From Pyrinomonadaceae bacterium (GTDB lineage Bacteria > Acidobacteriota > Blastocatellia > Pyrinomonadales > Pyrinomonadaceae), in NCBI GenBank assembly GCA_036506775.1, contig DASXRE010000287.1, positions 1,088 to 65,087 of the forward strand: a stretch of DNA of 64,000 nucleotides. The letters run 5' to 3'. The translations under genes and the position numbers were made by a program. The notes beneath the pieces were generated by a model. It saw only the letters and a program-made list of their open reading frames with translations. It searched no databases and was not told the origin of the DNA. Positions 4,092 to 53,511 of this stretch are shown one piece after another. Numbering within the stretch: the first letter of the stretch is position 1; the number at the start of each line of letters is the position of its first letter.

Positions 4092-5192
4092 TCAACGATC
4101 CACACGCGCGGTTCCGCGCTTCATCACTCGTTCCACTTCCGCGAGCGTCGCCATCGTGGTGTCACCGGGTGTCGTCATCGCCAACGCGCCGTGCGCGGCG
4201 CCGCACTCGACGGCCCATTGCAAACCCTTGCCTGCCAGCAAGCCGTAGATCAACCCGGAAGCAAAAGAATCTCCGCCGCCGACGCGGTCCAAGATCTCGA
4301 GGTCCTCACGGACGGGTGCCTGATAGAGTTCGCCGCCGGAGTAACACACCGCGCCCCAATCGTTCACCGTCGCCGTCTTCGCATTGCGCAGCGTAGTGGC
4401 GACGATCTTGAAGTTGGGAAACTCAGTCACCGCCTTTTCGATCATGCGGCGAAAGTTTTTCACCTCGAGTTTTGAATGATGCTCGTCCAGCCCTTCGACT
4501 TCGAATCCGAGCGCCGCGGTGAAGTCTTCTTCGTTTCCGATCATCACATCCACGAGTGGCGCCAGTTCGCGATTAACCTCAACCGCTCTTTCTCTGCCAC
4601 CGATCGAGCGCCACAACGAGTCGCGATAATTCAGGTCATACGAAATGATCGTGCCGTGCTTCTTCGCCGCTTCCATCGCTTCGCGCGCAACCGCGGGCGT
4701 GGTCTCGGACAGCGCACAAAAAATCCCACCGGTGTGGAACCAGCGCGCACCTTCGTGTGCAAATATCTGTTCCCAATCGATCTCGCCGGGCTGCAACTGC
4801 GAGATCGCGGTGTGGCCACGGTCCGAACAACCCGCCGCAGCGCGTACACCGAAGCCACGCTCGGTGAAGTTCAGACCGTTGCGAACGGTGCGTCCCACGC
4901 CATCGAACTTCACCCACTTTACATGCGACTGATCTACGCCGCCCTGATAAATCAGATCCTGGACCAGACGCCCGACCGCGTTATCGGCAAACGCCGTCAC
5001 CACAGTCGCGTCAAGACCGAAACAACGCTTTAATCCACGCGCAACGTTGTATTCACCACCGCCTTCCCAAACCTGAAAACTCCGCGTCGTGTGAACGCGC
5101 CCATCACCCGGGTCGAGCCGCAACATCACTTCGCCAAGCGACACGATGTCCCAGCGACACTTCGCCTTGTCTTTAATGTTCAGATCAGTCAT
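4092..5192 (-). CDS. kdgK: 2-dehydro-3-deoxygluconokinase (PfkB family)
   Basis: PfkB sugar-kinase fold with the C-terminal DRVGGGDSFASG motif. Start set at ATG 5192 (MTDLNIK...), which overlaps the upstream MFS stop by 8 nt, instead of the ORF-track start at 5231. Confidence 0.8.
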   Translation of the reverse strand: MTDLNIKDKAKCRWDIVSLGEVMLRLDPGDGRVHTTRSFQVWEGGGEYNVARGLKRCFGLDATVVTAFADNAVGRLVQDLIYQGGVDQSHVKWVKFDGVGRTVRNGLNFTERGFGVRAAAGCSDRGHTAISQLQPGEIDWEQIFAHEGARWFHTGGIFCALSETTPAVAREAMEAAKKHGTIISYDLNYRDSLWRSIGGRERAVEVNRELAPLVDVMIGNEEDFTAALGFEVEGLDEHHSKLEVKNFRRMIEKAVTEFPNFKIVATTLRNAKTATVNDWGAVCYSGGELYQAPVREDLEILDRVGGGDSFASGLIYGLLAGKGLQWAVECGAAHGALAMTTPGDTTMATLAEVERVMKRGTARVDR

Positions 5193-6756
5193 TGCGCCGT
5201 AACAAGAGACCGCCGATTGCACCGATGACAATACCGATGCCGCCAGCGATCATCATGTACTCAAACTGCACTCCACCGGAAACTCTCGCCGCTAGACTCA
5301 CGCACCAACCCACAAAGGAACCAAACACCAGACCGGCAAAACCAAAACCGATAAACAGACCCGCTGAAAACCTTCGCCCCGGCAGGCGCTCGACATCTTC
5401 CACCGGCGCGAGTTGCGGCGAAAGCAGATGGATGACAGCCAGAGCCAGCAAGTAAGTAGTGCCCGCAATGGTGAACACGATCGAGTAATTCTGGCCGGTA
5501 CTCTCCAGAATGTAACCCGTGGCGACGGCCATCGTGGCGCCGCCGAGCGCGCCGGCCATGCCGCCGATGCCCACGACTGATCCGACCGCGCGGCGCGGAA
5601 ACATGTCTGACGTCGTCGTGAACAGGTTACAGGACCAGCCCTGATGTGCGGCAGCCGCAAGTCCGATCAGCAGGGCCGCCACCCACAGGTTCTTCACGTT
5701 CGAAGCGAAGATGATCGGTGTCACCGCGAGCGCGCAGATTAGCATCGCCGTCTTGCGCGCGCGATTGATGGTCCAGCCGCGCTTGATAAAAGTTGAAGAG
5801 AGCCAGCCGCCCCCGATGCTGCCGATGTCAGCGATCAGATAGATCACGATCAACGGCCCGGCACTGCCGGTCAAATCGAGTTTGTGATGCTCGCGGAAAA
5901 ACGTGGGAATCCAGTAGAGATAAAACCACCACACCGGATCGGTAAGATACTTGCCAATCGCGAAAGCCGAAGTTTGCCGGTGCGGAATCAGTCGCACCCA
6001 TGGAATTTTTTCGGCCGGCGGATCCGGCGGATCGCTCTGAATGTGGGCCAACTCAGCCGCGGAGACTTTCGCGTGTTTTTCCGGATGCCGGTAAGTTGGC
6101 AGCCAGAACAACAGCCACAGAAATCCGAAAACGCCGGTGAGAATAAACGCCCAGCGCCAGCCGAGGTGACCGGCAATCCACGGGACGCATAACGGTGCAA
6201 CTATCGCTCCGACATTTGAGCCGGCGTTGAAGAGGCCCGTGGCAAACGCGCGTTCCTTCTTCGGAAACCATTCCGCAACAGTCTTGATCGCAGCCGGAAA
6301 GTTTCCGGCTTCGCCAAACCCCAACGCCGCACGCGCAACACCGAAACCCAAAGGCGTGCGCGCCAGAGCATGGGCCATCGCTGCCAGACTCCACCAGACA
6401 ATCGCGAGCGCGTAGCCGACGCGCGTCCCAATGCGATCCATCAAGCGGCCGGCGAGTAACAGGCCAAACGCGTAAGCAGCATTGAAAGCGGCGACGATGT
6501 TGCCGTAGTCGATTTCGGTCCAACCGATCTCGCTCTTCAGATCTTTTGCCAGCAGGCCGAGGACCTGGCGGTCAACATAGTTGACGGTGGTGGCAAAGAA
6601 CAGCAGACCGCAGATCACCCAGCGATAACGACCAACTCTCTCGCCTAATGTCTCCGCGCTAACAGCGGCAGCCGCGGGTGAAATGGTTGAGCTGTGCGTT
6701 GTTTTGGGGAGCGCGGGCGCATTCGCGATCTCGCCGGCATCGTTCATCGTCTCCAC
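5185..6756 (-). CDS. MFS transporter, ACS/ExuT-like (probable hexuronate importer)
   Basis: 523 aa with ~12 hydrophobic segments. MFS motifs: VNYVDRQVLGLLA, GRLMDRIGTR. The operon position between the SDR and kdgK-eda matches hexuronate transporters. Confidence 0.75.
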   Translation of the reverse strand: METMNDAGEIANAPALPKTTHSSTISPAAAAVSAETLGERVGRYRWVICGLLFFATTVNYVDRQVLGLLAKDLKSEIGWTEIDYGNIVAAFNAAYAFGLLLAGRLMDRIGTRVGYALAIVWWSLAAMAHALARTPLGFGVARAALGFGEAGNFPAAIKTVAEWFPKKERAFATGLFNAGSNVGAIVAPLCVPWIAGHLGWRWAFILTGVFGFLWLLFWLPTYRHPEKHAKVSAAELAHIQSDPPDPPAEKIPWVRLIPHRQTSAFAIGKYLTDPVWWFYLYWIPTFFREHHKLDLTGSAGPLIVIYLIADIGSIGGGWLSSTFIKRGWTINRARKTAMLICALAVTPIIFASNVKNLWVAALLIGLAAAAHQGWSCNLFTTTSDMFPRRAVGSVVGIGGMAGALGGATMAVATGYILESTGQNYSIVFTIAGTTYLLALAVIHLLSPQLAPVEDVERLPGRRFSAGLFIGFGFAGLVFGSFVGWCVSLAARVSGGVQFEYMMIAGGIGIVIGAIGGLLLRRND

Positions 6757-6831: not shown

Positions 6832-7608
6832 TTACTGGTTTACACCGCTCGCCAAAAAGCCGCCGTCAACGGCAAGGATCTCGCCAGTCACAAAACTGGC
6901 GGCATCGGAGGCCAGGAAGATCGCCGCGCCGGCGAGTTCGTCTACGTTGCCGAAGCGTTTCATCGGTGTGCGCAACAGAAACTCGCGGCCCCGTTCAGTT
7001 TCATCAAGCAGCTTTTGATTAAGCGCGGTGCGAAAGACGCCCGGCGCGATCGCATTCACACGCACGCCGCGGCTGGACCACTCGACAGCCAGCGACTTCG
7101 TCAGTGAACCGACCGCAGCCTTACTCGCCGAATACGCCGCGACCTCGTGCAGCGCCACGAAGGTCGATAACGAAGCGATGTTGATAATGCTGCCCGACTC
7201 GCGTTCCAACATGTGCCGCCCAAACACCTGGCACGCGCGCAACGTTCCCGTCAGGTTTGTGTCGATGATCGCGTTCCAGTCGTCTTCGGCGAAGTCGATG
7301 GTAGGCGCGCGCTTGGTCCGGCCGGCGGAGTTAACAAGAATATCGACCTTGCCCAACTTGTCGATCGCTTCGCTCAGCACGCGCTCTAATGACGCGCGGT
7401 CAGAAACATCAGACGGAACACGCAACGATCGACGCCCCAACTCCTCGATCTCGCTCGCGGCCGCTTCGACTTGTTCTTCGCGCCGGGAGGTCGGAATGAC
7501 GTCGGCGCCGGCCTGCGCGAAACCGCGCGCGATGGCGCGTCCGATACCAGAAGTGCCGCCCACGACCACGGCTACTTTGCCACTCAGTTCTAGTGGAGAA
7601 TAAGTCAT
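6832..7608 (-). CDS. Short-chain dehydrogenase/reductase (KduD / gluconate-5-dehydrogenase-like)
   Basis: Classical SDR motifs GGTSGIGRA (TGxxxGxG) and YSASKAA (YxxxK). First gene of the minus-strand SDR-MFS-kdgK-eda operon. The substrate cannot be determined. Confidence 0.8.
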   Translation of the reverse strand: MTYSPLELSGKVAVVVGGTSGIGRAIARGFAQAGADVIPTSRREEQVEAAASEIEELGRRSLRVPSDVSDRASLERVLSEAIDKLGKVDILVNSAGRTKRAPTIDFAEDDWNAIIDTNLTGTLRACQVFGRHMLERESGSIINIASLSTFVALHEVAAYSASKAAVGSLTKSLAVEWSSRGVRVNAIAPGVFRTALNQKLLDETERGREFLLRTPMKRFGNVDELAGAAIFLASDAASFVTGEILAVDGGFLASGVNQ

Positions 7609-7800
7609 AAGTTCTATATTGTTCTGTTCTCGGACTAAAAAACCATTCGCAGATTACAGCTACTGCCCTGTGTGTAACCTGTGAATTGCGTTCAGCTCCG
7701 GTTTGGAAAGGTTAGACCACTTTTAGAAAGTGCGGATACTGTGTAACACCCTGAGTCACCTAGCGTCAAGCACAAAAAGTCGCGTACTGATCTACGATTA

Positions 7801-7815
7801 GCTGGTTTTACCAGC
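7801..7815. promoter_or_regulatory. Palindromic operator GCTGGT-TTT-ACCAGC (GntR/FadR-type TGGT-N3-ACCA)
   Basis: A perfect 6+6 inverted repeat in the divergent promoter between the SDR operon and the NagB-like/uxaA operon. Confidence 0.55.
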
Positions 7816-7882
7816 CTCGTTTGAGTGCTGAAATTGTAGCTTGTCTAGTTGCGTTCTGCGTGTTAAAGTCATGGCTCTTTCG

Positions 7883-7899
7883 AAATTGGTATTACCAGT
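7883..7899. promoter_or_regulatory. UxuR/ExuR-like operator AAATTGGTATTACCAGT
   Basis: TGGTATTACCA palindrome (7887-7897), 27 nt upstream of ATG 7926. Resembles the hexuronate-regulon box (TTGGTATACCAA type, as I recall it). Confidence 0.55.
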
Positions 7900-7925
7900 C
7901 GGGCGACTTGGAAACCAGTCGGCAA

Positions 7926-8873
7926 ATGTCAGCAACCAGCAAACAGACTCTTCGGCGCCGCTCCGTCGCGGCGAACATCTGGCTCTCCCACGATGCTCCG
8001 GACAGTAATTATCTCGCGCGATTGCCTGTTCGAGACCTCGTCTACGAGGTGTTACCAGAGGAAGAAGCCGTGGGCCGCGCGATGCTCGAGGAGATCACAA
8101 ATGGCCTCGCCACTAAAGAGGCCACGAAAGATGGATCGCTCGTGATGGTGATTGTCGGCGGCCGGGGCGGGCAGGCGTTGCACCGGATCCTCGGCGCGAT
8201 GGCCAAGACGAGCGAGTACGATTCGTTATTCAGCCGTCTTCACGTCTTTACGCAAGACGCACTCGCGCCCATGCGAATGGACAACGGCCTCAGCTTTGTG
8301 CGCGACTTCGAACGACTGCTCGGCGAAGATTTCTTTCACAAGGTTCAGAGTTTCAATACCATGCGCACTGACGCCGAAGATCTCGAAAGTGAACTCGTTC
8401 GCTACGTAGAGCGACTTGAATCGTTGGGCGGCATCGACCTCTTCTTTCTTGGTCTTGGTCCAGAAGCCGGTGGCGCTTCACATCTCGCGTACATCAAACC
8501 CGGCTCCGGCGCGACTTACAACGACGTCGCCGGGCTGATTCCGATCTCACCGTCGATTCTTGAGCACCACATCAACAAATTCAAAGCCGGCGGCACGATT
8601 GTTACTGAAACTGACGAGACTGAGTGTCGCACGGCAAAACACATTCTGACGCTTGGTCCGGCAGCGATTCTCGGCGCGCGCCGTGTCGTGCAATCGATCG
8701 TCGATGCCGATACCGCACCGGCCAAACGCGACTCGTACCGGCAGTTGTTGACGACGAAAATCGCCGGCGATGCTGAGACGCGCCAGACTCAATTCGATCA
8801 AAACCCCGGACTCTGGTTGCGAGTTCATCCGAACGTTCGCTCGTTGATTCTGCCGAACGTTTTAGAAAGCTGA
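7926..8873 (+). CDS. NagB/6-phosphogluconolactonase-superfamily protein (divergent sugar-phosphate isomerase/deaminase-like)
   Basis: VMVIVGGRGGQALHRIL aligns with the GLxTGxTP region. IDLFFLGLGPEAGGASHLAYIKPGS aligns with the iDlxlLGiGxDGHiAFNEPgs region of NagB/Pgl. Start moved to ATG 7926 because both operators lie inside the TTG-7821 extension. Confidence 0.55.
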   Translation: MSATSKQTLRRRSVAANIWLSHDAPDSNYLARLPVRDLVYEVLPEEEAVGRAMLEEITNGLATKEATKDGSLVMVIVGGRGGQALHRILGAMAKTSEYDSLFSRLHVFTQDALAPMRMDNGLSFVRDFERLLGEDFFHKVQSFNTMRTDAEDLESELVRYVERLESLGGIDLFFLGLGPEAGGASHLAYIKPGSGATYNDVAGLIPISPSILEHHINKFKAGGTIVTETDETECRTAKHILTLGPAAILGARRVVQSIVDADTAPAKRDSYRQLLTTKIAGDAETRQTQFDQNPGLWLRVHPNVRSLILPNVLES

Positions 8874-8876
8874 CAC

Positions 8877-10442
8877 ATGTCGAACGTCCAAACAGCTTCG
8901 CTACTGCATGAGTTCGCGATCGTCGTGGATCCAAAGGACAACGTCGCGGTCGTCAAGAAAGCGACTACGCCCGGTTTGGAGTTGCTGTTGCCAAACGATT
9001 CGCTGATCGAGCTCCAGGACACCGTTCCGCCGGGTCACCGCTTTGCAACGCGCGATATTCCCGCAGGCGAGTTTGTATTGCAATTTGGACAACCGATCGG
9101 AACTTCTTTGGGGATTCAGCAGGGCCAACAGATCACGCACGACAACATGTCTGACGAGGTGCCAATCGTCCGCGAGCTTCCGGAAAACCTGCACACGGCG
9201 CCGCCAGATTATTTTCCTCTCGATCAACGACCCACGTTCATGGGTTATCGCCGTCCGGACGGCCGCGTGGGTACACGCAACTACGTGCTGATCGTGCCGA
9301 CGAGCATGTGTGCAAGTCACGAGGCGTTGCAAATCTCAACCATTGCTGAGTTCACGCTTCACGACAGAGTGAAGTATCCGAACGTCGATGGCGTCGTGGC
9401 CATTCCGCATAACAAAGGTTGTGGCTGTCAGGAAGGTTCGACGATCGACGTGATGTTGCGCACGCTTTCGAACTATGCCGACCATCCGAATGTTGGTGGC
9501 GTAATTCTGATCGATCTCGGTTGCGAAAAGACGAATCTTGCGCAGGTCGAGAAGTATCTGCTGAAGCGTGAGAAAGCGTTTGCGAAGCCGGTCGCGAAGA
9601 TTGGGATTCAGGAAGTTGGCGGCACGCAGGCAGCAATTCAACGCGGGCTGAAGGAAGTGCAAGAGATGCTGCCCGTGGTTAACAGAGTCAGTCGTGAAGA
9701 GTGTTCGGTGAGTGAGTTGGTGCTCGGTGTGAAGTGTGGCGGGTCCGATGGCTTTTCCGGCATTTCCGCAAATCCGTCGCTGGGTCGCGCTGCTGATCTG
9801 CTCGTTCGTTCTGGTGGAACTGTTTTGATCACCGAAGTGCCGGAGTTCTGTGGCGCGGAACATCTGCTCGCGCGGCGCGCGAAGGACGTGGAAACCGGAC
9901 GCGCGGTTTATCGCATGGTTGATTGGTACAAGGAATATGCGTCGAAGTTTGGGGCCGTGCTCAACAACAATCCGAGTCCCGGCAACGTCACGGGCGGATT
10001 GCTCAACATCACGATCAAATCGTTGGGAGCGATTGCGAAAGCTGGCACCACGCGCGTTGAAGGCGTAATTGAATACGCGGAAACACCAAAGCATCGCGGA
10101 CTGAACCTGATGCAGGGACCGGGTTACGACCAGGAATCCACGCCGGGTTTGGTCGCGGCCGGAGCGACGGTCGTTGTCTTCACGACCGGACGCGGCACGA
10201 CGATCGGCAACGCCATCGCGCCCGTAATCAAACTGGCCTCAAACACTCCCGTGTTTGAGCGCATGTCGAGCGATCTCGATCTCTCCTCCGGCGGCGTGAT
10301 CGACGGCACTGAATCGATCGACGAAGTCGGGCAACGCGTGTTCGATCACGTCGTAGCCGTCGCGGATGGACTGCAAGCAAAAGCCGAACTGCACAAGCAC
10401 CGCGAGTTCCAATTCTGGGCCGAACAGACCGTCTCACTCTAG
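8877..10442 (+). CDS. uxaA: Altronate dehydratase (UxaA/GarD family)
   Basis: 521 aa with an N-terminal SAF domain (VVDPKDNVAVV..PGHRFA) and UxaA-family core motifs (IPHNKGCGC, KCGGSDGFSGISANP). Confidence 0.85.
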   Translation: MSNVQTASLLHEFAIVVDPKDNVAVVKKATTPGLELLLPNDSLIELQDTVPPGHRFATRDIPAGEFVLQFGQPIGTSLGIQQGQQITHDNMSDEVPIVRELPENLHTAPPDYFPLDQRPTFMGYRRPDGRVGTRNYVLIVPTSMCASHEALQISTIAEFTLHDRVKYPNVDGVVAIPHNKGCGCQEGSTIDVMLRTLSNYADHPNVGGVILIDLGCEKTNLAQVEKYLLKREKAFAKPVAKIGIQEVGGTQAAIQRGLKEVQEMLPVVNRVSREECSVSELVLGVKCGGSDGFSGISANPSLGRAADLLVRSGGTVLITEVPEFCGAEHLLARRAKDVETGRAVYRMVDWYKEYASKFGAVLNNNPSPGNVTGGLLNITIKSLGAIAKAGTTRVEGVIEYAETPKHRGLNLMQGPGYDQESTPGLVAAGATVVVFTTGRGTTIGNAIAPVIKLASNTPVFERMSSDLDLSSGGVIDGTESIDEVGQRVFDHVVAVADGLQAKAELHKHREFQFWAEQTVSL

Positions 10443-11898: not shown

Positions 11899-14800
11899 AT
11901 GCGTCGCTTCATTACGGCGGTAACCCTTATCTGTATGCTCCTCATAAATGGCGTGACCTTGTTTGCGCGCAATACCAATCCGAAACAACCGAAATCACGC
12001 ACCAGAGCAATGAAAAATTCGGCGCCGCGCAAGCAGCTTGCTCGCAGCAAACGTGAGTCACGTAAGGAAGAAGCAGCGCGACAGCAGCTCGTCAAACGTA
12101 ATCCTCGCCTGGCCTCTCTCTTCAAACCAGAGGCGGAGGCAGAAGCCGATCTCGATCGCTTCGATCAGCCACGTGAAGCACTCGAATGGTACATGCAGAA
12201 GCGCTTGCCAAAAGGCGCAAAGGAGTTGCCCATCGAGCGTTACTTCCAGGCCAAAGAGAAGATCAAGAAGATGAAGCGGTTCTCCACGGCCAAAAACAAA
12301 AACCTTCCGTCCCAAGCCGAATCCGGCGATACAGAGGAACTCTTCGGCGATCCGGAGTTTCCCGGCGGCACGGGCGGTGGCGGCGCTGGCGACGGTAGCG
12401 CTTCCACGAGCGGCGCGCTCGGCACCTGGCAATCGCTTGGACCAGGTAACGTCGGCGGTCGTACTCGCGCGCTCGTTATCGATCCTGTCAGTCCTGACGT
12501 GATGTACGCGGCAGGCGTTGCAGGCGGCATCTGGAAAACGACGAATGGCGGTGGTACGTGGTCGCCACTGAATGACTTCCTCGCGAACATCGCCGTGACC
12601 GTTCTCGCGATGGACCCCACCGATTCGAACACAATCTATGCCGGCACCGGCGAAGGTTATTTCAATGGTGACGGTGTTCGCGGCGCGGGTATCTTCAAGA
12701 CGATCGACGCCGGCGCACACTGGACTCGCCTCGCGTCAACCGCATCGAATACAAACTTCTTCTTCATTAACGACCTCGTCGTCAGTCCGGCGAATAGTCA
12801 AAACGTTTACGCCGCCACTCGCACAGGTGTCTTTCGTAGTCTTGATGGCGGCACAAACTGGACGCAGGTGATCGTTTCCAACTTAGCGAACGGCGCCAAC
12901 GGTGCGATGGACCTCGTGATGCGCACCGATCAGGCGACGGACTACATTTACGCTGCGGTCGGCACGTTCTCAACTTCACACATCTTCCGTAACACCGACG
13001 CGGCGGGCGCAGGCACGTGGGTCGATGTTTACTCCGAGCCCACCATGGGCCGCACCTCGCTGGCCATCGCGTCCTCGAATCAGAACGTGATTTACGCGAT
13101 GGCGGCTTGTATTTCCTGCGGCGCGGGAACAAATCCAAACTTTCCGACCGCAAACTACACTGACGGTCTACTCGGCGTGTTCCGTTCGACCTCGTCGGGC
13201 GACGCCGGTTCGTGGACCGCGCAGGTACGCAACAACAGCGCGAACCTGCAAGACACGTTGTTGCTTAGCAATCCTGTCAACGGCGCTTTGACGCAGTGCG
13301 GTTTCGGTACCAGTCAGTTTCTCAATCAAGGTTGGTACGACAACGTGATCGCCGTCGATCCCACAGACTCAGACAAAGTGTGGATAGGCGGCGTCGATCT
13401 GTTCCGTTCAGACAATGGCGGTGTCAACTGGGCCGTTGCGTCTTACTGGTGGTTCCAGATAAATGGAACTCCGCCTAACAACGGCGATCCGCAGTTTGTC
13501 CATGCTGACAATCACGCTCTCGTCTTTCATCCAAACTACAACGGCACAACTAATCAAACGCTGTTCGCCGGCAACGACGGCGGTATCTACAAAACCGATA
13601 ACGCCAAGACAGGTAACGTGGGCTATGCCGGTGGCATAACTCCGGGTGGCGGGGCCATCACGCCATCGAGCCCGATCTGCGGTAATGAATTCACACCGGG
13701 CGGATTCTTTACAGTTCCGTCGCCGGTTATTTGGGGTCCGTTGAACAACAACTACGCCGTGACGCAGTTTTATCACGGCCTGCCTTACCCGAATGGGCAA
13801 ACATATTTCGGCGGCACGCAGGACAACGGCACCAACCGCGGTACTGACGCGGCTGGTCCAAATGCGTGGGCTCGCATCAATGGTGGCGACGGTGGCTACG
13901 TGGCCGTTAACCCCTCCAACACCAACACGATTTTCTTTGAGACGACGGGTCTTTCGCTTCGCCGATCAACCAACGGTGGTCTGAGTTCCGCCTCCGTCAT
14001 CACTGGCATCGCCGGCGATGCGTTCCCGTTCATCACGGTGTTCAGGATGGACCCAACCACACCTACCCGCTTGTGGATTGGTGGCCGCTTCATGTGGCGC
14101 ACGGACAACAACGCCACAAACTGGACCAGAACGAGCAACGCGCAGCAGACCGGCGGCTCAATCACGGCCATAGCAATCGCGCCCACAAATTCGAACATCG
14201 TGATCGACGGCGCAGCTTCAGGACAGCTCCGGCGCACGACGATTGGCCTGACTGCTAATGCGGCGAGTGTGTTGGCCACCACGTGGCTACAGACCTTCAC
14301 GCCGCGCGGCAACGGCAACGGCACGATCTCATGGGTTGAATATGATCCGACGAATGCCAATAACGTTTGGGCCACCATCTCGAACTTCAACGGCACTCCC
14401 AATGTGAACGGAACGAGTGCTGGTCACGTCTTCAAGAGCACGGACGGAGGCGCAAACTGGACGCTCGCAGACGGAACGCAGACGGCTGGAAACGTCAACG
14501 CGATACCTGACATCCCGGCGCACTCAGTCGTTGTCGATCCGAATAACAACCAGCGTATCTACGTCGGTACAGACTTGGGCGTGTTCGTTTCACTCGACGG
14601 TGGAGCAAACTGGGCGCGTGAGACAACGGGCTTCTCCAATACGGTAGTGGAGTCGCTCTCAGCAGTGAACAACGGCGGAGTGACGACGTTGTTTGCTTTC
14701 ACGCACGGTCGCGGTGCTTTCAAGGTGACTATTCCGGCGTCGTGCGCAACCGTCTCACCAACTACTCAGGCGTTTTTCTCACCCGGCAACACGGGCAACG

Positions 14801-16386
14801 TAACGGTGACGAAGAACCTGTCGGCCACAGCGCCCTGCGACTGGAACGCGGTGAGTAACAGTCCGTTCATCACGATCAATTCCGGCACGCCGGGAAATGG
14901 AAACGGCACCGTCAACTTCACCGTTGCGCCAAACACGACCGGAGCAGCTCGCGTCGGAACACTAACCGTAGCCGGCCGAAACGTGACCATCACACAGGAT
15001 GCGGCGCCAATTGCAAGCAACGACTCCGCAACCACAGATGAAGACACGCCCGTTGACATCAATGTGCTCGTTAACGACGTCGAGCCCGACGGCGACACAC
15101 TCAACATCAACTCGGTGACACAAGGTGCCAATGGAACAGTCTCGGTCAATCCGAACAAGACCATTCACTACGCGCCCGCATTGAACTTCTTTGGCAACGA
15201 CTCATTCACCTACACGATCGATGATGGACACGGCGGCATGTCGACAGCCACCGTAAACGTCACTGTTAATCCGGTGAATGACGCGCCGGTCTTTACGATC
15301 AACGTGTTGTCGCAGGCGGTGCAGTACAGCGATCCGATTACGCCGGTGACTGTTTCTGTGTCGGATGTGGACGATGCAACTTCATCCTTGACGTTGTCAG
15401 TGACGACCGCGGTGCCGGCCGGATTGACGGTCACGCCGAACGGCGTGGGGTCGTTGATCATCTCCGGCAATCCGACGGTAGTGGCCGGGGTCTATAACAT
15501 CGGACTACAAGTGGTCGATCCACACGGTGCGACGACAACCGCAACCGTCACGATCACCGTTAACAAGGAGACGGCGGAAACGACTTACACCGGCGACATG
15601 GGGATCGTAACCGCTGGTCCAACAATCACCACGGCAACCGTGCGTCTCGGGGCACACCTGACGCAGGATCCGGATGGAGCACCGGGAGACATCACGCTGG
15701 CGCGCGTGACGTTTGAGTTGTTCAAGTCAACCAACATGAGCAACACGCCCGACACGACGGTGGCAAACGTTCCGGTCGATAGCAACGGTGATGCACTGAC
15801 TTTCCTTGCTGGTGTTGCTGCCGATACCTATGTCGTGAAGGTCAAGATTGACGCGACTAACGGATACTGGACCGCAGACCCGGTGGGCCTCGGCACAATC
15901 AACGTCGCCGTAGGCACAAACGATCAGCGGGCCACTGGCGGTGGCTGGGTGCCCGATGCCGGCAGTGTTAACGGTAAGGGCAATTTCGGGTTCACCGTTC
16001 GCATCGACAAGAACAGCCTGAAAGGTAACTCGATCTACATCTTCCGTGGCACCGATGGATTCAACTACATCGTGAAGAGCACGAGTTGGACAGGTGGTTT
16101 CCTGAACTTCTCCACCGAGCCCGCCACGAGTACGCTGAACCGCGCCTCGTTCAAGGGCAAATGCACGGTGCAGAAGGTCGATCGGAATACGGGTGCGGTA
16201 GTTGACTCGTTTGGTAACTACAGCTTCACGGTTGACGTGCGTGACGGCGATCTGCTCGTCCCAACGCAAGGCGATGCATACGCCATCACGATCCTGGACA
16301 ACAACGGCGTGATCTGGCGCCGCGTCGGCACCAACCTGTCGCTGGTATCAATCGGCGGTGGCAACGTGCTGGTGAAAGCCCAGTAA
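11899..16386 (+). CDS. Large secreted BNR/Asp-box propeller protein with BACON-like and cadherin-like Ig domains
   Basis: 1495 aa with a signal-like N-terminus. Repeated Asp-boxes: TTNGGGTWSPL, SLDGGTNWTQV, SDNGGVNWAV, STDGGANWTL, SLDGGANWAR. Cadherin-like repeats: DEDTPVDINVLVNDVEPDGD, VNPVNDAPVF. Confidence 0.8.
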   Translation: MRRFITAVTLICMLLINGVTLFARNTNPKQPKSRTRAMKNSAPRKQLARSKRESRKEEAARQQLVKRNPRLASLFKPEAEAEADLDRFDQPREALEWYMQKRLPKGAKELPIERYFQAKEKIKKMKRFSTAKNKNLPSQAESGDTEELFGDPEFPGGTGGGGAGDGSASTSGALGTWQSLGPGNVGGRTRALVIDPVSPDVMYAAGVAGGIWKTTNGGGTWSPLNDFLANIAVTVLAMDPTDSNTIYAGTGEGYFNGDGVRGAGIFKTIDAGAHWTRLASTASNTNFFFINDLVVSPANSQNVYAATRTGVFRSLDGGTNWTQVIVSNLANGANGAMDLVMRTDQATDYIYAAVGTFSTSHIFRNTDAAGAGTWVDVYSEPTMGRTSLAIASSNQNVIYAMAACISCGAGTNPNFPTANYTDGLLGVFRSTSSGDAGSWTAQVRNNSANLQDTLLLSNPVNGALTQCGFGTSQFLNQGWYDNVIAVDPTDSDKVWIGGVDLFRSDNGGVNWAVASYWWFQINGTPPNNGDPQFVHADNHALVFHPNYNGTTNQTLFAGNDGGIYKTDNAKTGNVGYAGGITPGGGAITPSSPICGNEFTPGGFFTVPSPVIWGPLNNNYAVTQFYHGLPYPNGQTYFGGTQDNGTNRGTDAAGPNAWARINGGDGGYVAVNPSNTNTIFFETTGLSLRRSTNGGLSSASVITGIAGDAFPFITVFRMDPTTPTRLWIGGRFMWRTDNNATNWTRTSNAQQTGGSITAIAIAPTNSNIVIDGAASGQLRRTTIGLTANAASVLATTWLQTFTPRGNGNGTISWVEYDPTNANNVWATISNFNGTPNVNGTSAGHVFKSTDGGANWTLADGTQTAGNVNAIPDIPAHSVVVDPNNNQRIYVGTDLGVFVSLDGGANWARETTGFSNTVVESLSAVNNGGVTTLFAFTHGRGAFKVTIPASCATVSPTTQAFFSPGNTGNVTVTKNLSATAPCDWNAVSNSPFITINSGTPGNGNGTVNFTVAPNTTGAARVGTLTVAGRNVTITQDAAPIASNDSATTDEDTPVDINVLVNDVEPDGDTLNINSVTQGANGTVSVNPNKTIHYAPALNFFGNDSFTYTIDDGHGGMSTATVNVTVNPVNDAPVFTINVLSQAVQYSDPITPVTVSVSDVDDATSSLTLSVTTAVPAGLTVTPNGVGSLIISGNPTVVAGVYNIGLQVVDPHGATTTATVTITVNKETAETTYTGDMGIVTAGPTITTATVRLGAHLTQDPDGAPGDITLARVTFELFKSTNMSNTPDTTVANVPVDSNGDALTFLAGVAADTYVVKVKIDATNGYWTADPVGLGTINVAVGTNDQRATGGGWVPDAGSVNGKGNFGFTVRIDKNSLKGNSIYIFRGTDGFNYIVKSTSWTGGFLNFSTEPATSTLNRASFKGKCTVQKVDRNTGAVVDSFGNYSFTVDVRDGDLLVPTQGDAYAITILDNNGVIWRRVGTNLSLVSIGGGNVLVKAQ

Positions 16387-16451: not shown

Positions 16452-16745
16452 CTACGATACGCGTGACTGCCACATCTCTGGATTGCGACGTGAGTGGAAA
16501 ATCGCCGTCACCTGAATCTCGTCGACTGTTACTTCATAGAATATAGCGAAGGGAAAACGGCGGACGATCGCACGTCGCAACGTCCTGTAGACTACCGGGA
16601 ACGAATTTGGACTGCTAACTACGAGCGCAAGCGCCTCATCAATGGACTGCATGAACTCCAGGTCCAAATTTGCGCGTTGGTGAGAATACCATTCGCGGGC
16701 CTCAGTGAGATCGGCCTCCGCTTCAGGAGAGATGCGAACAAGCAT
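16452..16745 (-). CDS. parE: Type II toxin, RelE/ParE family
   Basis: 97 aa with a family-typical layout (EAEADLTEAREWY ... FPFAIFYEV..DEIQVTAIFHSRRNP), 9 nt downstream of an antitoxin gene. Confidence 0.75.
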   Translation of the reverse strand: MLVRISPEAEADLTEAREWYSHQRANLDLEFMQSIDEALALVVSSPNSFPVVYRTLRRAIVRRFPFAIFYEVTVDEIQVTAIFHSRRNPEMWQSRVS

Positions 16746-16754
16746 GTGTTGTAT

Positions 16755-16976
16755 TTAGCGCGACTTCATGAACTCAGACTTGATCTCTTCCCAAGTGCGG
16801 CCACGGCCAGGATTCTTTCTGGCCGCTTCGAGACGGCGGTCCAGTTCCAGCTTCTGAGCGTCAGTTAGCTCAAATGCCTCATTCTCCTCGGCGATCGTGT
16901 CCCAGATGTCCTCTACCAGGCGGATTCTCTCCGGGATGCTGAGGTTCTTCGCCTCTTTGACTAACTCCATTGCCAT
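16755..16976 (-). CDS. Addiction-module antitoxin (TIGR02574-like)
   Basis: Start set at ATG 16976 (MAMELVKEAKNLSIPERIRLVEDIWDTI...). The LSxxERxxLxxxIWDSI-type motif and the C-terminal ELDRRLEA..NPG region are typical of this antitoxin family. Confidence 0.7.
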   Translation of the reverse strand: MAMELVKEAKNLSIPERIRLVEDIWDTIAEENEAFELTDAQKLELDRRLEAARKNPGRGRTWEEIKSEFMKSR

Positions 16977-17165
16977 GCGCGCGATTATAGCAAAGCAGCA
17001 CCGCTGAAAGAGAATACCATTTTTGTTGAAGGTCATCGGCGCCTAGCGGAGTGCTTCGGTCTTCTTTTGGAGGTGACCAATTGGCACCTCCCACATCTCG
17101 ATCTCACAGCTATCTGCACAATCGCTGAAAATCATTAACGAACCACCTCGTGAGATAATTAAGGC

Positions 17166-18776
17166 ATGCATCCACTCCTGCAGCAATATCAACACACGCT
17201 TCTGGGTCGTTTGCGAACTAAACTCTTCTTGCAGATCACTGGTTCTACCGACCGTTTACCTACTGAACAAGAGTTATGGCGGTATCTGATGCCAGCGTGG
17301 AAACAGAACGCACTTGCCGCTGAATTGCAGTTTCACCTGATTCATCTCAGGGGGTCACGTCGGGTGTCTTTTCCGACAAGCATGTCTCGACAGCAAGTAC
17401 GTGCTTGCTTGAGGGACATTGTTCGAAAGGAACCGGTGTGGAGCTTATTCGCAGAAGGCGTCTCACCAACGCAATCACCCCCGACAGGTATTGGCTGCGT
17501 CGCGCTCGGCCATACAAGACCATCAGGCGAGCCAGGTTATTACGCTGCCATAATGTCCGAGGCTGATTTCCCTGATTGTGGATTCGTTTCCATTGCTCCA
17601 CATATTCGCACCTCTGACTCGCACATTGCCGTGCTTGGCACGAATGGGTGGGCCGAACTTACGGTATCACAGGCTGGCTCGCACGAGGGGCCGTGCATTG
17701 CCCTGACCGCCATTCAACAACATTTGCCCGGAGTAATTACAGTGCCTCTGGAGCAAATCAAGGATGCGAGGCGCGAGGATCAGCCGCCCAAAGATCCGGA
17801 ATTGATGCGGCGTCTTGAGCTAGTATTGCGGGGAAAGATGCGTTTAGCTAAAGCGACGGTACGCCGCAGCACCGTTCGTCTGTTTGACGACAAGTTTGCG
17901 AGAACTATAGATCCGGCCAAGGTCATGCGGTTTATCAACGGAGGCGATCACGATCTTCTTGTCTATTGGGATGGACATTCTTTCGTTTCCAGCGATGACT
18001 ACTACACATATTTGGGTTATCAGATGCTGGAAACCGAAGAGGTAAAGGTTGTGATTATTGGAGAGTTTCCTTCCAGGTTGGCCAAAGTAGAGAGTCGTGG
18101 GAACCACGAGTTATTACCACCGGTAGTAATTAGCCGGACGAGTGCGGTGCCTGGCGTGAGCCTGGAACTACAAGCATGGCAAGCTCGCGAAGAGAGATTA
18201 AAAGACAGGCGCTTGGCAACGCCCGCGGACCTCCTTGCTGGATGGGTAGCATTCGCCAATGTTTTAGGTGATGAAACTGCCAAGGAGAGTGCTCTCCATA
18301 AACTACTTGTCTCTTATCCAGTAATTCTAGGTGCGAAGTGGGACATCGTCGACAGCGAGGTCCATTTCGGGCGAAATTACAAAGCTGACTTGGTTCTACG
18401 CGCGAACCGAGCACTACCGACGGTGTGCCTTGTTGAGTTGGAAAGGGCCAATCATCGCCTGTTTACGAAAGACTTCCACGAGACTGACGAAGTTACTCAT
18501 GCTGTTCAGCAGGTAAGCGATTGGTTACGATACTGTAGACAACATCCGGAAGATCCCGTCATTTCGGCTAGTCATGGCGTAAGTCCAGATGGTCTAGTCG
18601 TTATCGGCCTATCCCGCCATTTAAGTCAACGCGAACGGGAAACACTTGCGCATAATAATCAAGGGAGGAATGTCAAGGTTATTACTTATGACGAATTGCT
18701 CGATGACTTCGGGACACTCATTCTCCATCGGCTCGATGATGGTGCCAGCGTATCGAGTGACCAACGGAATGAATAG
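17166..18776 (+). CDS. Shedu-like protein: unknown ~370-aa N-terminal region + DUF4263-like PD-(D/E)xK nuclease domain
   Basis: The C-terminal 167 aa match the DUF4263 pattern as I remember it: HKLL..YPVILG ... KADLVL ... VCLVELER..HRLF ... AVQQVSDWLRY ... LVVIGLS ... NVKVITYDELLDDF. Confidence 0.6.
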   Translation: MHPLLQQYQHTLLGRLRTKLFLQITGSTDRLPTEQELWRYLMPAWKQNALAAELQFHLIHLRGSRRVSFPTSMSRQQVRACLRDIVRKEPVWSLFAEGVSPTQSPPTGIGCVALGHTRPSGEPGYYAAIMSEADFPDCGFVSIAPHIRTSDSHIAVLGTNGWAELTVSQAGSHEGPCIALTAIQQHLPGVITVPLEQIKDARREDQPPKDPELMRRLELVLRGKMRLAKATVRRSTVRLFDDKFARTIDPAKVMRFINGGDHDLLVYWDGHSFVSSDDYYTYLGYQMLETEEVKVVIIGEFPSRLAKVESRGNHELLPPVVISRTSAVPGVSLELQAWQAREERLKDRRLATPADLLAGWVAFANVLGDETAKESALHKLLVSYPVILGAKWDIVDSEVHFGRNYKADLVLRANRALPTVCLVELERANHRLFTKDFHETDEVTHAVQQVSDWLRYCRQHPEDPVISASHGVSPDGLVVIGLSRHLSQRERETLAHNNQGRNVKVITYDELLDDFGTLILHRLDDGASVSSDQRNE

Positions 18777-18783
18777 GGCAGAC

Positions 18784-19590
18784 TTAACGCAGCAGGTCGC
18801 GGAGGGCCGGGTGGCCGCCGTGCTCGGCCCAGCCCAAGGGAGTTGAGCCGACCTTTGTATCTTTCACATTCCGATCCGCGCCTTGGGCCAGCAGGAATTC
18901 AACCATCGCGCGTTGCCCGTTCAGTGCAGCGTAATGTAGACCAGTGCCGGCGTAATCAAACCCTCCCGGTATCACATTGATCTCCGCACCTTTCTCCAGC
19001 AACAGTCTCGCCGCCTCGATGTGGCCGTGCATACAGGCGTAGACGAAAGCATTATTAATGATGCCTTGCCGATCCTGTTGCCACGGATTACCTCGACTGC
19101 TCCACGGCCACTCAATCCTGCCGGCCTCGGGTTTTAAACTTCCATCGGGATTGAAATAACTTTCAATCAGATCGGTGCGTCCAAGACCGGCGGCCATGCG
19201 AAGGTTTTGCACCTTCGCACCACGCTCAAGCAACAACGCCATCACGTCCTGACTGTTCCAGTACAAAGCCTCTTCCAAAGGCAACCAATTCCCGGTGCCA
19301 TCAATCGCCGCGCCACGATCGAGCAGCAGTTCAGCGACCGGTCGATTGTCGATGCTCGCCGCCGCCACCAGCGGCTCATTTATGTCAGCGCCCGCATCGA
19401 TCAAAACTGTCGCCATCTCGAGCGCGTTAGGTTTATCTTTACCATCCAGCACCAGGCACTGAAGCAACGTCGGATGACTGGTTGACGATCGTGACGTCGC
19501 AAGCGAAGGGTCCCCGGCGACGAGCGACTTCAGGTTCTCAACGTCATCGGATCTGATTGCCTTTATTGCGGGATGGAATTTTGCGTCCAT
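18784..19590 (-). CDS. Ankyrin-repeat protein
   Basis: 268 aa with several ANK-type units (TLLQCLVLDG..., LIDAGADINE, LLDRGAAIDG, LLERGAKVQN, HGHIEAARLLLEKGAEIN, GLHYAALNGQRAMVEFLLAQGADRN). Confidence 0.85.
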   Translation of the reverse strand: MDAKFHPAIKAIRSDDVENLKSLVAGDPSLATSRSSTSHPTLLQCLVLDGKDKPNALEMATVLIDAGADINEPLVAAASIDNRPVAELLLDRGAAIDGTGNWLPLEEALYWNSQDVMALLLERGAKVQNLRMAAGLGRTDLIESYFNPDGSLKPEAGRIEWPWSSRGNPWQQDRQGIINNAFVYACMHGHIEAARLLLEKGAEINVIPGGFDYAGTGLHYAALNGQRAMVEFLLAQGADRNVKDTKVGSTPLGWAEHGGHPALRDLLR

Positions 19591-49032: not shown

Positions 49033-50232
49033 TCACGCCGCTTTCCGAAACTCCATCACGACCTCGCGACGCATACGACTGTCAAGTGCGCTTTCATCTC
49101 CAGCGGCCGAAGGAGGAGGCAGATATCTTCTATTTGCGGGCAGGCGACGAGAGTGTCGTGACACCAACGAAAGGCCGTGCCGATGCGCCAAAACAGAAAC
49201 GATTCGGGAATTGCGGATGAATGTTCCTCTTATGGTCGAATCGCCAACGACGTAGACCGCAAGAGCTCCAGATCGTAACACGCGCGCCGTTTCACTGATC
49301 GCTTGATTCATGTCCCAAATATACTGGCACAATAACCGCTGATCGCGAGTGCTAAGGCGAGGTGTCAATCGTAAGTTTGTAATAATCGATCGCACCCATT
49401 CTGCCGCTATCGCTTCTGGTGAGGCTGATTCCGCGCCGATATTTTCGCCACGGATCTTGCGAAGCTCTGATACGTTGTATCCCATCCAGACCAGCGAAAA
49501 CTTACTACAACGCAAGTAATCAATTGCGTTCAAATAAGGAGGCGACGTGACTACAATGTCTATGGAATTATCATCGATGTCCAATTGTCGCGCGTCTCCC
49601 TCCGAAACTCGAGGCGGTGGTCCAAGTCGTTCAGCCCCTCTTTGAGGACAATTTGAGACAACCACGTCAACCGTTGCGAGGAACTTATTAAATGGCTTTA
49701 TCGGTGCACGCCTGAATTTCTTATGCGGTCTGCTGTGGGAGAGATCCATAGCAAGGGAGGCTCCAGCCTGCTTAGTAATGATAAGACGGGAGAAACCGCA
49801 CCAAAGAACCTCGCGTATACGTTCGTCGCGAACACGGCTAATCGCGGTTGCAAGAGAGGCCAATTGCCGACGCGCATAATCATCGAACCAATACCGAATG
49901 AACTTTCGAGTATCAGCGTCAGCATTCTTCGGATATGCAGCGGCGATGGTGAGCGTTCGAAACAGAGTCTTCGCACGTTGTAGTACCTCATCAGCCTTTA
50001 GAAGAACCGCCTGACGATCAATGGTTGTTGTCCAGACGCGCGCAAGTAATACAGCTAATGGATCGGAATCGACTCCAATCGCTCTATGACCTTCAGCGCG
50101 TGCGATGGCAAGAACAGTACCCGAACCCATCATCGGATCCAGCAACCGGGCAGAGCCCTCCAAGCCATGAAGCGACTTAAGGACAATACCTGGTGCCATT
50201 CGTGCGGGGAAGGGATGTATAGGTTTAATCAT
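49033..50232 (-). CDS. DNA N6-adenine/N4-cytosine methyltransferase
   Basis: IHPFPARMAP opening, AdoMet motif I LDPMMGSGT, catalytic motif IV VVTSPPY ~190 aa later. The order I-TRD-IV suggests an alpha-class enzyme. Confidence 0.85.
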   Translation of the reverse strand: MIKPIHPFPARMAPGIVLKSLHGLEGSARLLDPMMGSGTVLAIARAEGHRAIGVDSDPLAVLLARVWTTTIDRQAVLLKADEVLQRAKTLFRTLTIAAAYPKNADADTRKFIRYWFDDYARRQLASLATAISRVRDERIREVLWCGFSRLIITKQAGASLAMDLSHSRPHKKFRRAPIKPFNKFLATVDVVVSNCPQRGAERLGPPPRVSEGDARQLDIDDNSIDIVVTSPPYLNAIDYLRCSKFSLVWMGYNVSELRKIRGENIGAESASPEAIAAEWVRSIITNLRLTPRLSTRDQRLLCQYIWDMNQAISETARVLRSGALAVYVVGDSTIRGTFIRNSRIVSVLAHRHGLSLVSRHSRRLPANRRYLPPPSAAGDESALDSRMRREVVMEFRKAA

Positions 50233-50241
50233 GAGTCCAAG

Positions 50242-52896: not shown

Positions 52897-53052
52897 AGTT
52901 GAGGTTCCTTTCGACCACTCAATCTAATCGAAACGCTTTTGTTCTACAACCTCTTGGAAAATCCATTGAACAGGCACTACTCGCAGTAGCATACTTGAAG
53001 TTCGTGCGATAACCGGTGGTGGGAACCGGTTTAGTGACAATTGATCAGGACA

Positions 53053-53511
53053 TTAGTGTGTGGCACGCCACAACTCGCCCTCAAGTGCTGCAATCTGTGC
53101 GTCGACCATGCCGTTGAGGTTCAACTCGCCGCAGCGAGTGAAGGCAAGGTGCTTCGCTGTGTTCGCAAGTGCTTTCGGTTGGGTGGAGTTTTCGAGCGTC
53201 GACAGCAGGACGAGCAGCGCTGCCGAGGGCTCGTCACCGGCCCGGCAGATCAGATCTGTTAATGCTTCGATCTTTTCTTCGCTTGAATGAACATACAGGT
53301 TATCGATGATGCTTTCACCGGCGTCGACACAGCGCACGAGTTCGGGCAGCTCCGGGTCGTTTATTTCCAAGGCGTAACGGATTACCGCACGGGTTTGTGC
53401 GTCGATCGATTTGTCGTTGATGACTGATTGAGCGCGTCGTTTAAGAGCGTCGCTGATGTGAGATGTTTCTTCCCGCAGTCTTGCACTGCTAAGATTAAGC
53501 ATGACTTTCAT
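53053..53511 (-). CDS. Hypothetical helical protein, first gene of the MTase/GHKL cluster
   Basis: 152-aa ORF on the same strand, 156 nt upstream of the GHKL gene. No motif recognised. Confidence 0.5.
   Translation of the reverse strand: MKVMLNLSSARLREETSHISDALKRRAQSVINDKSIDAQTRAVIRYALEINDPELPELVRCVDAGESIIDNLYVHSSEEKIEALTDLICRAGDEPSAALLVLLSTLENSTQPKALANTAKHLAFTRCGELNLNGMVDAQIAALEGELWRATH

Follow-up and report, generated by a model that had tools for sequence, protein, structure and literature searches.

The gene at 17166..18776 (+) in a 64,000-nucleotide stretch of DNA from a Pyrinomonadaceae bacterium (Acidobacteriota; contig DASXRE010000287.1; the whole stretch is referred to below as the window) probably encodes a stand-alone Shedu (SduA) anti-phage nuclease, in which the N-terminal module would act as a sensor or inhibitor and the nuclease site, devoid of the usual lysine, would be active. 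The open reading frame (ORF) was confirmed to be intact and full length; it starts with ATG and encodes 536 amino acids (aa). The sequence AAGG lies 5 nt upstream of the start codon, and the N-terminus MHPLL is the common start in 12 of 17 aligned homologues. A first-pass annotation of this DNA had proposed a Shedu-like nuclease with a novel N-terminal region of about 370 aa, and all the peptides it quoted were found in the translation: HKLLVSYPVILG (residues 378–389), KADLVL (406–411), VCLVELER (420–427), AVQQVSDWLRY (446–456), LVVIGLS (477–483), VKVITYDELLDDF (503–515) and DLLVYWDG...IIGEF (263–301).

The Shedu (DUF4263) identity was borne out by profile searches and by structure comparison. 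The Pfam family SduA_C (PF14082) matches residues 373–512 over profile positions 3–159 of 159, scoring 60.4 bits where the gathering threshold is 27 (E=3e-16). Thirteen PADLOC SduA models match the protein; in the best of them, PDLC00387 (E=4e-61), residues 10–519 align to profile positions 33–540 of 546, and relatives of the window protein reach E=1e-93 against the same model. Since this match is nearly full length, the whole architecture is already catalogued as Shedu. An identical protein in NCBI is already annotated as SduA-domain-containing. The new sequence joins an already catalogued Shedu subfamily and is mostly ordinary, and the value of the annotation as such is small, given that PADLOC-type tools and NCBI already name the gene Shedu. 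No functional or structural study of the PDLC00387 subfamily was found in the literature searched.

The AlphaFold2 model of the full protein, built on 17 homologues, has a mean pLDDT of 82.5. In the Foldseek search against the PDB, the best match of the model is Bacillus cereus Shedu (8ti9_C, E=9.5e-5, TMt 0.64); 8ti8 chains were also matched (E=2e-3 to 6e-3). Other top matches of the predicted structure include EndoMS (5gke, E=2.1e-4) and P. abyssi NucS (2vld). EndoMS is the closest structural homologue of Shedu according to Gu et al. (preprint). The search of the whole protein sequence against PDB chains yielded no match, and 8ti8 was reached only with the profile of the nuclease domain.

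The SduA_C domain with the PD-(D/E)xK fold occupies residues 370–528 (18273..18749, +), as assigned from the Pfam match, Foldseek and a hidden Markov model alignment to 8ti8. Residues were mapped to B. cereus SduA (8ti8) via a profile alignment of this domain, and conservation was computed for 81 cluster representatives (50% identity) having both the N-terminal module and SduA_C. The active site consists of E204, D249, E264, K266 and Q295 in B. cereus Shedu (Gu et al., preprint) and of E226, Q230, D269, E283, K285 and Q314 in Escherichia coli Shedu (Loeff et al., preprint). The putative motif I glutamate, E374 (18285..18287, +), is located in the helix before the core strands; it lies outside the stretch aligned with 8ti8 and would correspond to B. 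cereus E204 and E. coli E226 by position. The motif II aspartate D408 within KADLVL (18387..18389, +) aligns with D249. In motif III, E424-L425-E426 (18435..18443, +), E424 aligns with E264 and E426 falls in the column of K266. Hence the catalytic lysine of this motif (K266 in B. cereus, K285 in E. coli) is replaced by glutamate, as the first-pass annotation had noticed in reading Glu/Arg where Lys is usual. The motif IV helix contains H445-A-V-Q448-Q449 (18498..18512, +), with Q449 aligned to Q295.

Residues E374, D408, E424, E426, Q449 and W453 are present in all 81 representatives, and H445 in 80. Consequently, every representative has the E-x-E variant of motif III, and it is also found in 17 of the 19 genome loci with the same N-terminus (L010–L028); in the remaining two, L022 and L028, the nuclease columns are unaligned. 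The residue following the second glutamate varies (R in 49 representatives, S in 8, H in 7, K in 5, N in 5), which rules out a relocated catalytic lysine at this position. The invariance of E426 and of the other active-site residues indicates purifying selection, not decay.

Among genome loci recovered by nuclease-domain patterns, E-x-E always occurs together with H-A-x-Q-Q-V-x-D-W in the motif IV helix. The same combination is present in ORFs lacking the N-terminus studied here (L029–L036, L038–L042, L045). ORFs with E-x-K (L043, L044, L046–L049) carry (S/G)-x-x-x-Q-V-L-D-Q instead, and the motif IV histidine is absent from them. The co-occurrence of E-x-E and His across different N-termini marks a wider sub-branch of Shedu nucleases. 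It suggests that the Lys-to-Glu and Ser/Gly-to-His changes are coupled and define a sub-branch of DUF4263, as judged from a sample (L029–L049) skewed by the patterns with which it was collected. Both Pfam and PADLOC continue to assign this sub-branch to SduA, and the substitution therefore identifies a variant inside the family. H445 sits four residues, that is one helical turn, before Q449; it would therefore point into the catalytic centre, where it may make up for the missing lysine. A site without lysine can still be catalytic, as shown by BamHI, a PD-(D/E)xK enzyme that is active with Glu at the place of the Lys. By analogy, the D...E-x-E site of the window protein most likely retains catalysis. 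As the family includes a large, strictly conserved sub-branch without the lysine, active-site rules based on B. cereus and E. coli Shedu hold for only part of it.

The region preceding the nuclease domain was scanned against Pfam and NCBIfam, with no family matched, and a PDB profile search with it retrieved no family and no ParB or sulfiredoxin (Srx) chain. About 29 homologues of the protein, most of them full length, were found by a word-indexed search. A profile of residues 1–362 retrieved 295 clusters at E<=1e-3, of which 171 reached E<=1e-10, from 1.84 billion representatives (clusters at 50% identity). The novelty proposed for this region thus stands in that no Pfam or NCBIfam family covers it, and fails in that the PDLC00387 alignment, the 295 clusters and the NCBI label all include it; it is weakened further by Gu et al., who already list Shedu N-termini of the ParB/sulfiredoxin type. 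The N-terminal 360–370 aa are uncharacterised yet not new. In the AlphaFold2 model the region is predicted to split into two domains and a helical linker.

Domain 1 (residues 1–203, 17166..17774, +) is predicted to have four helices, then a sheet of six strands and finally two more helices. When modelled alone, it obtained a pLDDT of 89.7 and a pTM of 0.83. It has no Pfam match. The best Foldseek match in the PDB had E=0.39 and probability 0.08, and the best one in BFVD had E=0.056 with TM<0.3; these matches were rejected as noise because of low probability and high root-mean-square deviation (rmsd). In 17 close homologues LLGRL (residues 12–16), G26, P32, E97 and G110 are invariant. As modelled, domain 1 is an orphan alpha/beta fold with no detectable relative in the PDB or BFVD. 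Given its confident prediction, it invites structural work as a possible sensing domain for a ligand or nucleic acid.

Domain 2 (residues ~204–320, 17775..18125, +) was assigned a ParB/sulfiredoxin-like fold based on Foldseek, hhalign and conservation. The predicted structure matched sulfiredoxin 1xw4 (E=8.2e-3, probability 1.0, rmsd 2.7 Å over 85 columns) and 6ky4 (TMt 0.64), as well as more than 20 chains of ParB, Noc, PadC, SbnI and SerK. A profile of 35 domain 2 sequences was then aligned by hhalign with human Srx, whose sequence had been checked to be identical to the PDB chain; the alignment had E=0.0033 but a probability of 9.7%. Its register, which pairs FVSSDDYYTYLGYQML with FYSFGGCHRYAAYQQL, is consistent with the structural match. 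The faint ParB/Srx resemblance that the first-pass annotation had noted for DLLVYWDG...IIGEF proved well placed, as the segment lies inside the predicted ParB/Srx-like fold, although the canonical residues are absent. In the hhalign alignment the Srx signature G-G-C99-H100-R101 corresponds to D277-D278-Y279-Y280-T281. None of the signature loops (G-C-H-R of Srx, GxxR of ParB, DGQQR of DUF262) was found in domain 2, nor was any conserved basic residue at that place, and 12 members scanned against Pfam had no ParBc or DUF262 match at E<=1. The position of the ParB/Srx phosphate-binding loop, as given by conservation and the Srx alignment, is occupied by S276-D277-D278-Y279 (17991..18002, +). In 79 sequences, D277 is conserved in all, Y279 in 76, D278 in 70 and S276 in 68. 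This loop is the peak of conservation of the whole N-terminal region, and domain 2 holds most of its conserved residues. Hence domain 2 is predicted to have a ParB/Srx-like fold without the canonical nucleotide-binding and catalytic residues and with a strongly selected acidic and aromatic loop instead. Residues 321–369 (18126..18272, +) form the linker, modelled by AlphaFold2 as a low-confidence loop (pLDDT<50 at residues 318–327) followed by two long helices (333–347 and 353–368) leading into the nuclease.

The N-terminal module is not confined to Shedu. Among 174 retrieved sequences, 84 combine it with SduA_C. About nine proteins of ~441–452 aa form another group, and all six of them that were scanned (P0118, P0121, P0136, P0139, P0094, P0085) bear a C-terminal EAD11 domain (PF19964, E down to 2.9e-17). 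In P0042 and P0049 the module is fused to an N-terminal SMEK domain (PF21941, E=2e-30), a nuclease domain known from short-Argonaute systems. Two further C-terminal tails were distinguished. The first, of ~220 aa with the motifs "VLTED...HRDRDY...GTDIESY", occurs in 15 representatives (P0067, P0072, P0087 and others), and the second, "YRLDF...GIELSPW", in three (P0071, P0083, P0095). Neither tail has a significant Pfam match, the best being REase_MTES_1575 with E=0.06; judging from motif readings alone, the first may be Toprim-like and the second restriction-endonuclease-like. The contigs of the EAD11 and SMEK variants are ~2 kb long, too short to inform on partners. EAD11, ParB, SMEK and Shedu are not mentioned by those names in Kaur et al. 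(2020).

On this sequence evidence, the N-terminal ~360 aa appear as an evolutionarily mobile module fused to at least four domains besides SduA_C. Swapping among effectors is the pattern expected of a sensor or regulator cassette, and it supports the control of the nuclease by its N-terminus, which the first-pass annotation had suggested and which would here operate by analogy with other Shedu. One may go further and consider the ~360-aa unit as an undescribed, effector-independent immunity sensor or regulator cassette with at least five outputs, its Shedu sub-branch having in addition a distinct E-x-E and His chemistry; we offer this broader proposal tentatively and regard it as rather doubtful. 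If it is true, the outputs would be the E-x-E Shedu nuclease, the SMEK nuclease, the EAD11 adaptor, the Toprim-like tail and the restriction-endonuclease-like tail. With a sensor shared by Shedu and non-Shedu effectors, the trigger could be sought by comparing those systems.

The family was found in about nine phyla. Full-length relatives are encoded in Verrucomicrobiota, Gemmatimonadaceae, Pyrinomonadaceae/Blastocatellia, Pseudanabaena, Anaerolineae, Obscuribacterales, Nitrospiraceae, a deltaproteobacterium and several Proteobacteria, among them cultured Variovorax, Pseudomonas, Undibacterium and Peristeroidobacter. A relative is present in only 3 of ~2.9 million viral contigs. In two viral or prophage contigs from IMG/VR (L050, L051) the relative is 30% identical over residues 154–519; the Pseudomonas loci L023 and L024 show this identity over this range as well, which suggests occasional carriage on prophage-like elements. 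Two of the homologous loci, L022 and L028, have in-frame ORFs of 683 and 654 aa that are unaligned to the nuclease profile, with tblastn matches to query residues 1–525 and 6–508, respectively; these copies may be frameshifted, interrupted or pseudogenised.

To compare genomic contexts, ORFs within 5 kb of the gene were clustered for 23 loci. No flanking family was present in three or more of them, and no conserved housekeeping context emerged among the homologues. Flanks shared by unrelated loci were limited to the following: the window and L002 both encode ankyrin-repeat proteins, L007 and L012 have one family in common, and L010 and L014 are linked by a 77-aa fragment of the former that matches an ORF of 950 aa in the latter. 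The ankyrin-repeat protein of L002 (9790–11328, −) is two genes away from the homologue. Several loci have defence genes nearby: in L025 the gene is directly followed by GajA and GajB (E=9e-267 and 1e-239), while L023 encodes Dsr1, L014 a type IIG restriction-modification enzyme and L011 a PD-T4-6-like kinase. The neighbours in L012 are a NACHT NTPase, an HNH protein and a P4-type primase. Toxin-antitoxin adjacency recurs around homologues with a different family each time: the Pseudanabaenaceae locus L013 has MazE/PemK upstream and a small ORF with a PIN protein downstream (7346–7929, 9680–10295), and L005 has Fic with HTH_17 (5022–5698). These neighbours were recorded as a sample of loci, without a statistical enrichment test. 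Shedu is established as a single-gene defence system, and the homologues agree with it: they have no conserved neighbour, are patchily distributed across phyla and, among the sampled loci, often lie in defence islands.

In the window, the gene is preceded by a divergent toxin-antitoxin pair, as the first-pass annotation had pointed out. The toxin gene (16452..16745, −; 97 aa) belongs to the ParE/RelE family (PF05016 ParE_toxin, E=3.3e-9). The antitoxin ORF (16755..17036, −; 93 aa) belongs to the "putative addiction module component" family (PF09720, E=1.7e-16; TIGR02574, E=4.9e-22). The TIGR02574 match covers antitoxin residues 28–89, and the true start is probably, from the sequence, the internal Met in MAMELVKEAK at ~16973, the listed ORF beginning 21 codons earlier. 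The two ORFs are separated by 9 bp on the same strand, the usual layout of type II toxin-antitoxin systems. The pair is thus real, but across the 23 loci it is not a conserved partner of the nuclease gene; it is a separate selfish module within the same small variable islet, and adds a further case of selfish or defence genes gathering near this gene. The divergent intergenic region between the antitoxin and the sduA-like gene (17037..17165, 129 bp) presumably holds promoters of both directions. A consensus scan found no sigma-70-like site in it, and the promoter and terminator scan around the sduA-like gene performed no better than on shuffled sequence.

The AT-richer islet of the first-pass annotation is present as a modest dip. 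The GC content of 16452–18776 is 51.5%, whereas the window averages 55.1% (z=−1.33), a low equalled or undercut by 15% of windows of the same size, and the flanking genes have 57–58%. The window has its GC minimum, about 48%, at ~50200–53100, below that of the Shedu islet, and it overlaps a large ORF (50242–52896, −). Directly upstream of the toxin-antitoxin pair lies a 1495-aa ORF (11899–16386, +) rich in Gly/Thr/Asn repeats; its N-terminal part includes a hydrophobic segment, and the product resembles a secreted repeat protein. An ankyrin-repeat protein is encoded 7 bp downstream of the sduA-like gene, in convergent orientation (18784–19590, −), with no terminator-like hairpin between the stop codons (18776–18784). 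It matches PADLOC PDC-M72A (E=7.7e-16), probably via the repeats alone. A functional link of the sduA-like gene to the ParE pair or to the ankyrin neighbour was rejected, as neither recurs beside homologues.

Four other explanations of the gene were weighed against an active stand-alone Shedu nuclease controlled by its N-terminus. The loss of the motif III lysine raises the possibility of a dead pseudo-enzyme, either a DNA-binding or scaffold factor or a decaying relic. Both characterised Shedu nucleases have an active-site lysine, and E426 stands in the column of K266. Decay, however, would produce variation, whereas E-x-E and the other catalytic residues are kept in 81 of 81 representatives and the pattern extends to the wider sub-branch. 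The ORF is also intact and full length, and active BamHI has Glu at this position. We consider a dead enzyme quite unlikely. A housekeeping DNA-repair endonuclease of the NucS/EndoMS type, for which the structural matches to 5gke and 2vld could speak, is scarcely credible: Shedu structures outscore both, Pfam and PADLOC call the protein SduA, and its relatives are scattered over phyla in non-syntenic neighbourhoods, many of them defence islands.

The role of domain 2 admits another view, namely that it is an active nucleotide-binding or NTPase switch gating the nuclease, as proposed for Type 1D Shedu (DUF262, N48) and as in GmrSD/BrxU. Such a mechanism was proposed by Gu et al. for Shedu of the ParB/Srx type, and a different Shedu, KELShedu, is inhibited by nucleoside triphosphates (NTPs). 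(The name KELShedu derives from an accession and has nothing to do with the E-L-E motif.) The fold matches of domain 2 include CTP- and ADP-bound ParB, Srx, SbnI and SerK, and the highest N-terminal conservation falls in this domain. Against this view stands the loop itself: where Srx has G-G-C-H-R, the window protein has the acidic and aromatic D-D-Y-Y-T, neither Gly nor basic. With the phosphate loop replaced, canonical NTP binding by domain 2 seems unlikely; the Pfam scan of 12 members and the PDB profile search, neither of which brought up ParB/Srx relatives, count against it as well. We therefore hold the NTPase switch to be unlikely. It is very improbable that the sduA-like gene and the ParE/antitoxin pair form one three-gene module, for example a nuclease controlled by the toxin-antitoxin system. 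The pair is adjacent, divergent and 129 bp away, and toxin-antitoxin pairs stand beside homologues in L013 (MazEF, PIN) and L005 (Fic and HTH). Their families, however, vary by locus, most loci have none, no flank is shared by three or more of the 23 loci, and Shedu is established as a single-gene system.

The preferred reading, a Shedu nuclease under N-terminal control, can be given a mechanism modelled on the characterised enzymes. N-terminal domains of Shedu autoinhibit or sense, and the nuclease core is tetrameric (Gu et al., preprint; Loeff et al., preprint); autoinhibition by the N-terminal domain was shown for B. cereus Shedu. If it works like these B. cereus and E. coli proteins, the window protein would assemble into a homotetramer through its nuclease domains, and its N-terminal module would keep the enzyme off and sense infection. 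The cue could be a feature of the invading nucleic acid, or else a ligand or protein linked to infection. Its detection would release metal-dependent DNA cleavage, in which H445 or the second glutamate, E426, may take over the role of the lysine.

Several observations weigh against this reading. The compositional sign of foreign origin is weak (z=−1.33). The sole defence-like neighbour within the window is the toxin-antitoxin pair; the ankyrin protein is non-defence, and so are the other neighbours in the window, which from their sequence we take to be a peptidase and a sigma factor. The EAD11 fusions could also fit the module being a recruited effector rather than a sensor. Finally, both characterised Shedu enzymes are E-x-K, and activity of the E-x-E sub-branch is therefore argued by analogy. 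As for the first-pass annotation, it was right on the identity and on the ParB/Srx hint, and overstated the N-terminal novelty and the weight of the islet. The E-x-E and His sub-branch, the portable N-terminal module and the orphan fold of domain 1 are points beyond it.

Several known systems can be set beside the window. Its ParE/antitoxin pair resembles type II systems of the ParE/RelE and TIGR02574/PF09720 kind, matching both families; unlike ParE-ParD, the antitoxin is not of the ParD family, and the pair is not linked to Shedu elsewhere. The D...E-x-E acidic arrangement of the nuclease is like that of BamHI-type sites, the kinship being limited to the superfamily fold. The ParB/sulfiredoxin-type N-termini are listed by Gu et al. 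among Type 1D Shedu (DUF262, N48). Like these and like GmrSD/BrxU, the window protein has a ParB/Srx-fold domain N-terminal to a nuclease as modelled; unlike them, its domain 2 has neither the canonical signature nor a DUF262 or ParBc match, and an extra orphan domain of 200 aa precedes it. The sPC4/Whirly-type N-terminus of B. cereus Shedu differs from the ~360 aa of the window protein with its orphan and ParB/Srx-like domains, and so, as far as it is described, does the DNA-end clamp of E. coli Shedu. The nuclease differs from both Shedu enzymes in having E-x-E instead of E-x-K and an extra invariant His in the motif IV helix. In common with B. cereus B4264 SduA (8ti8, 8ti9) and E. coli SduA, it belongs to the same C-terminal nuclease family, with the same predicted fold, and keeps the Glu of motif I, the Asp of motif II, the first Glu of motif III and the Gln of motif IV. 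It also shares with Shedu the single-gene organisation, the variable N-terminus and the association with defence islands.

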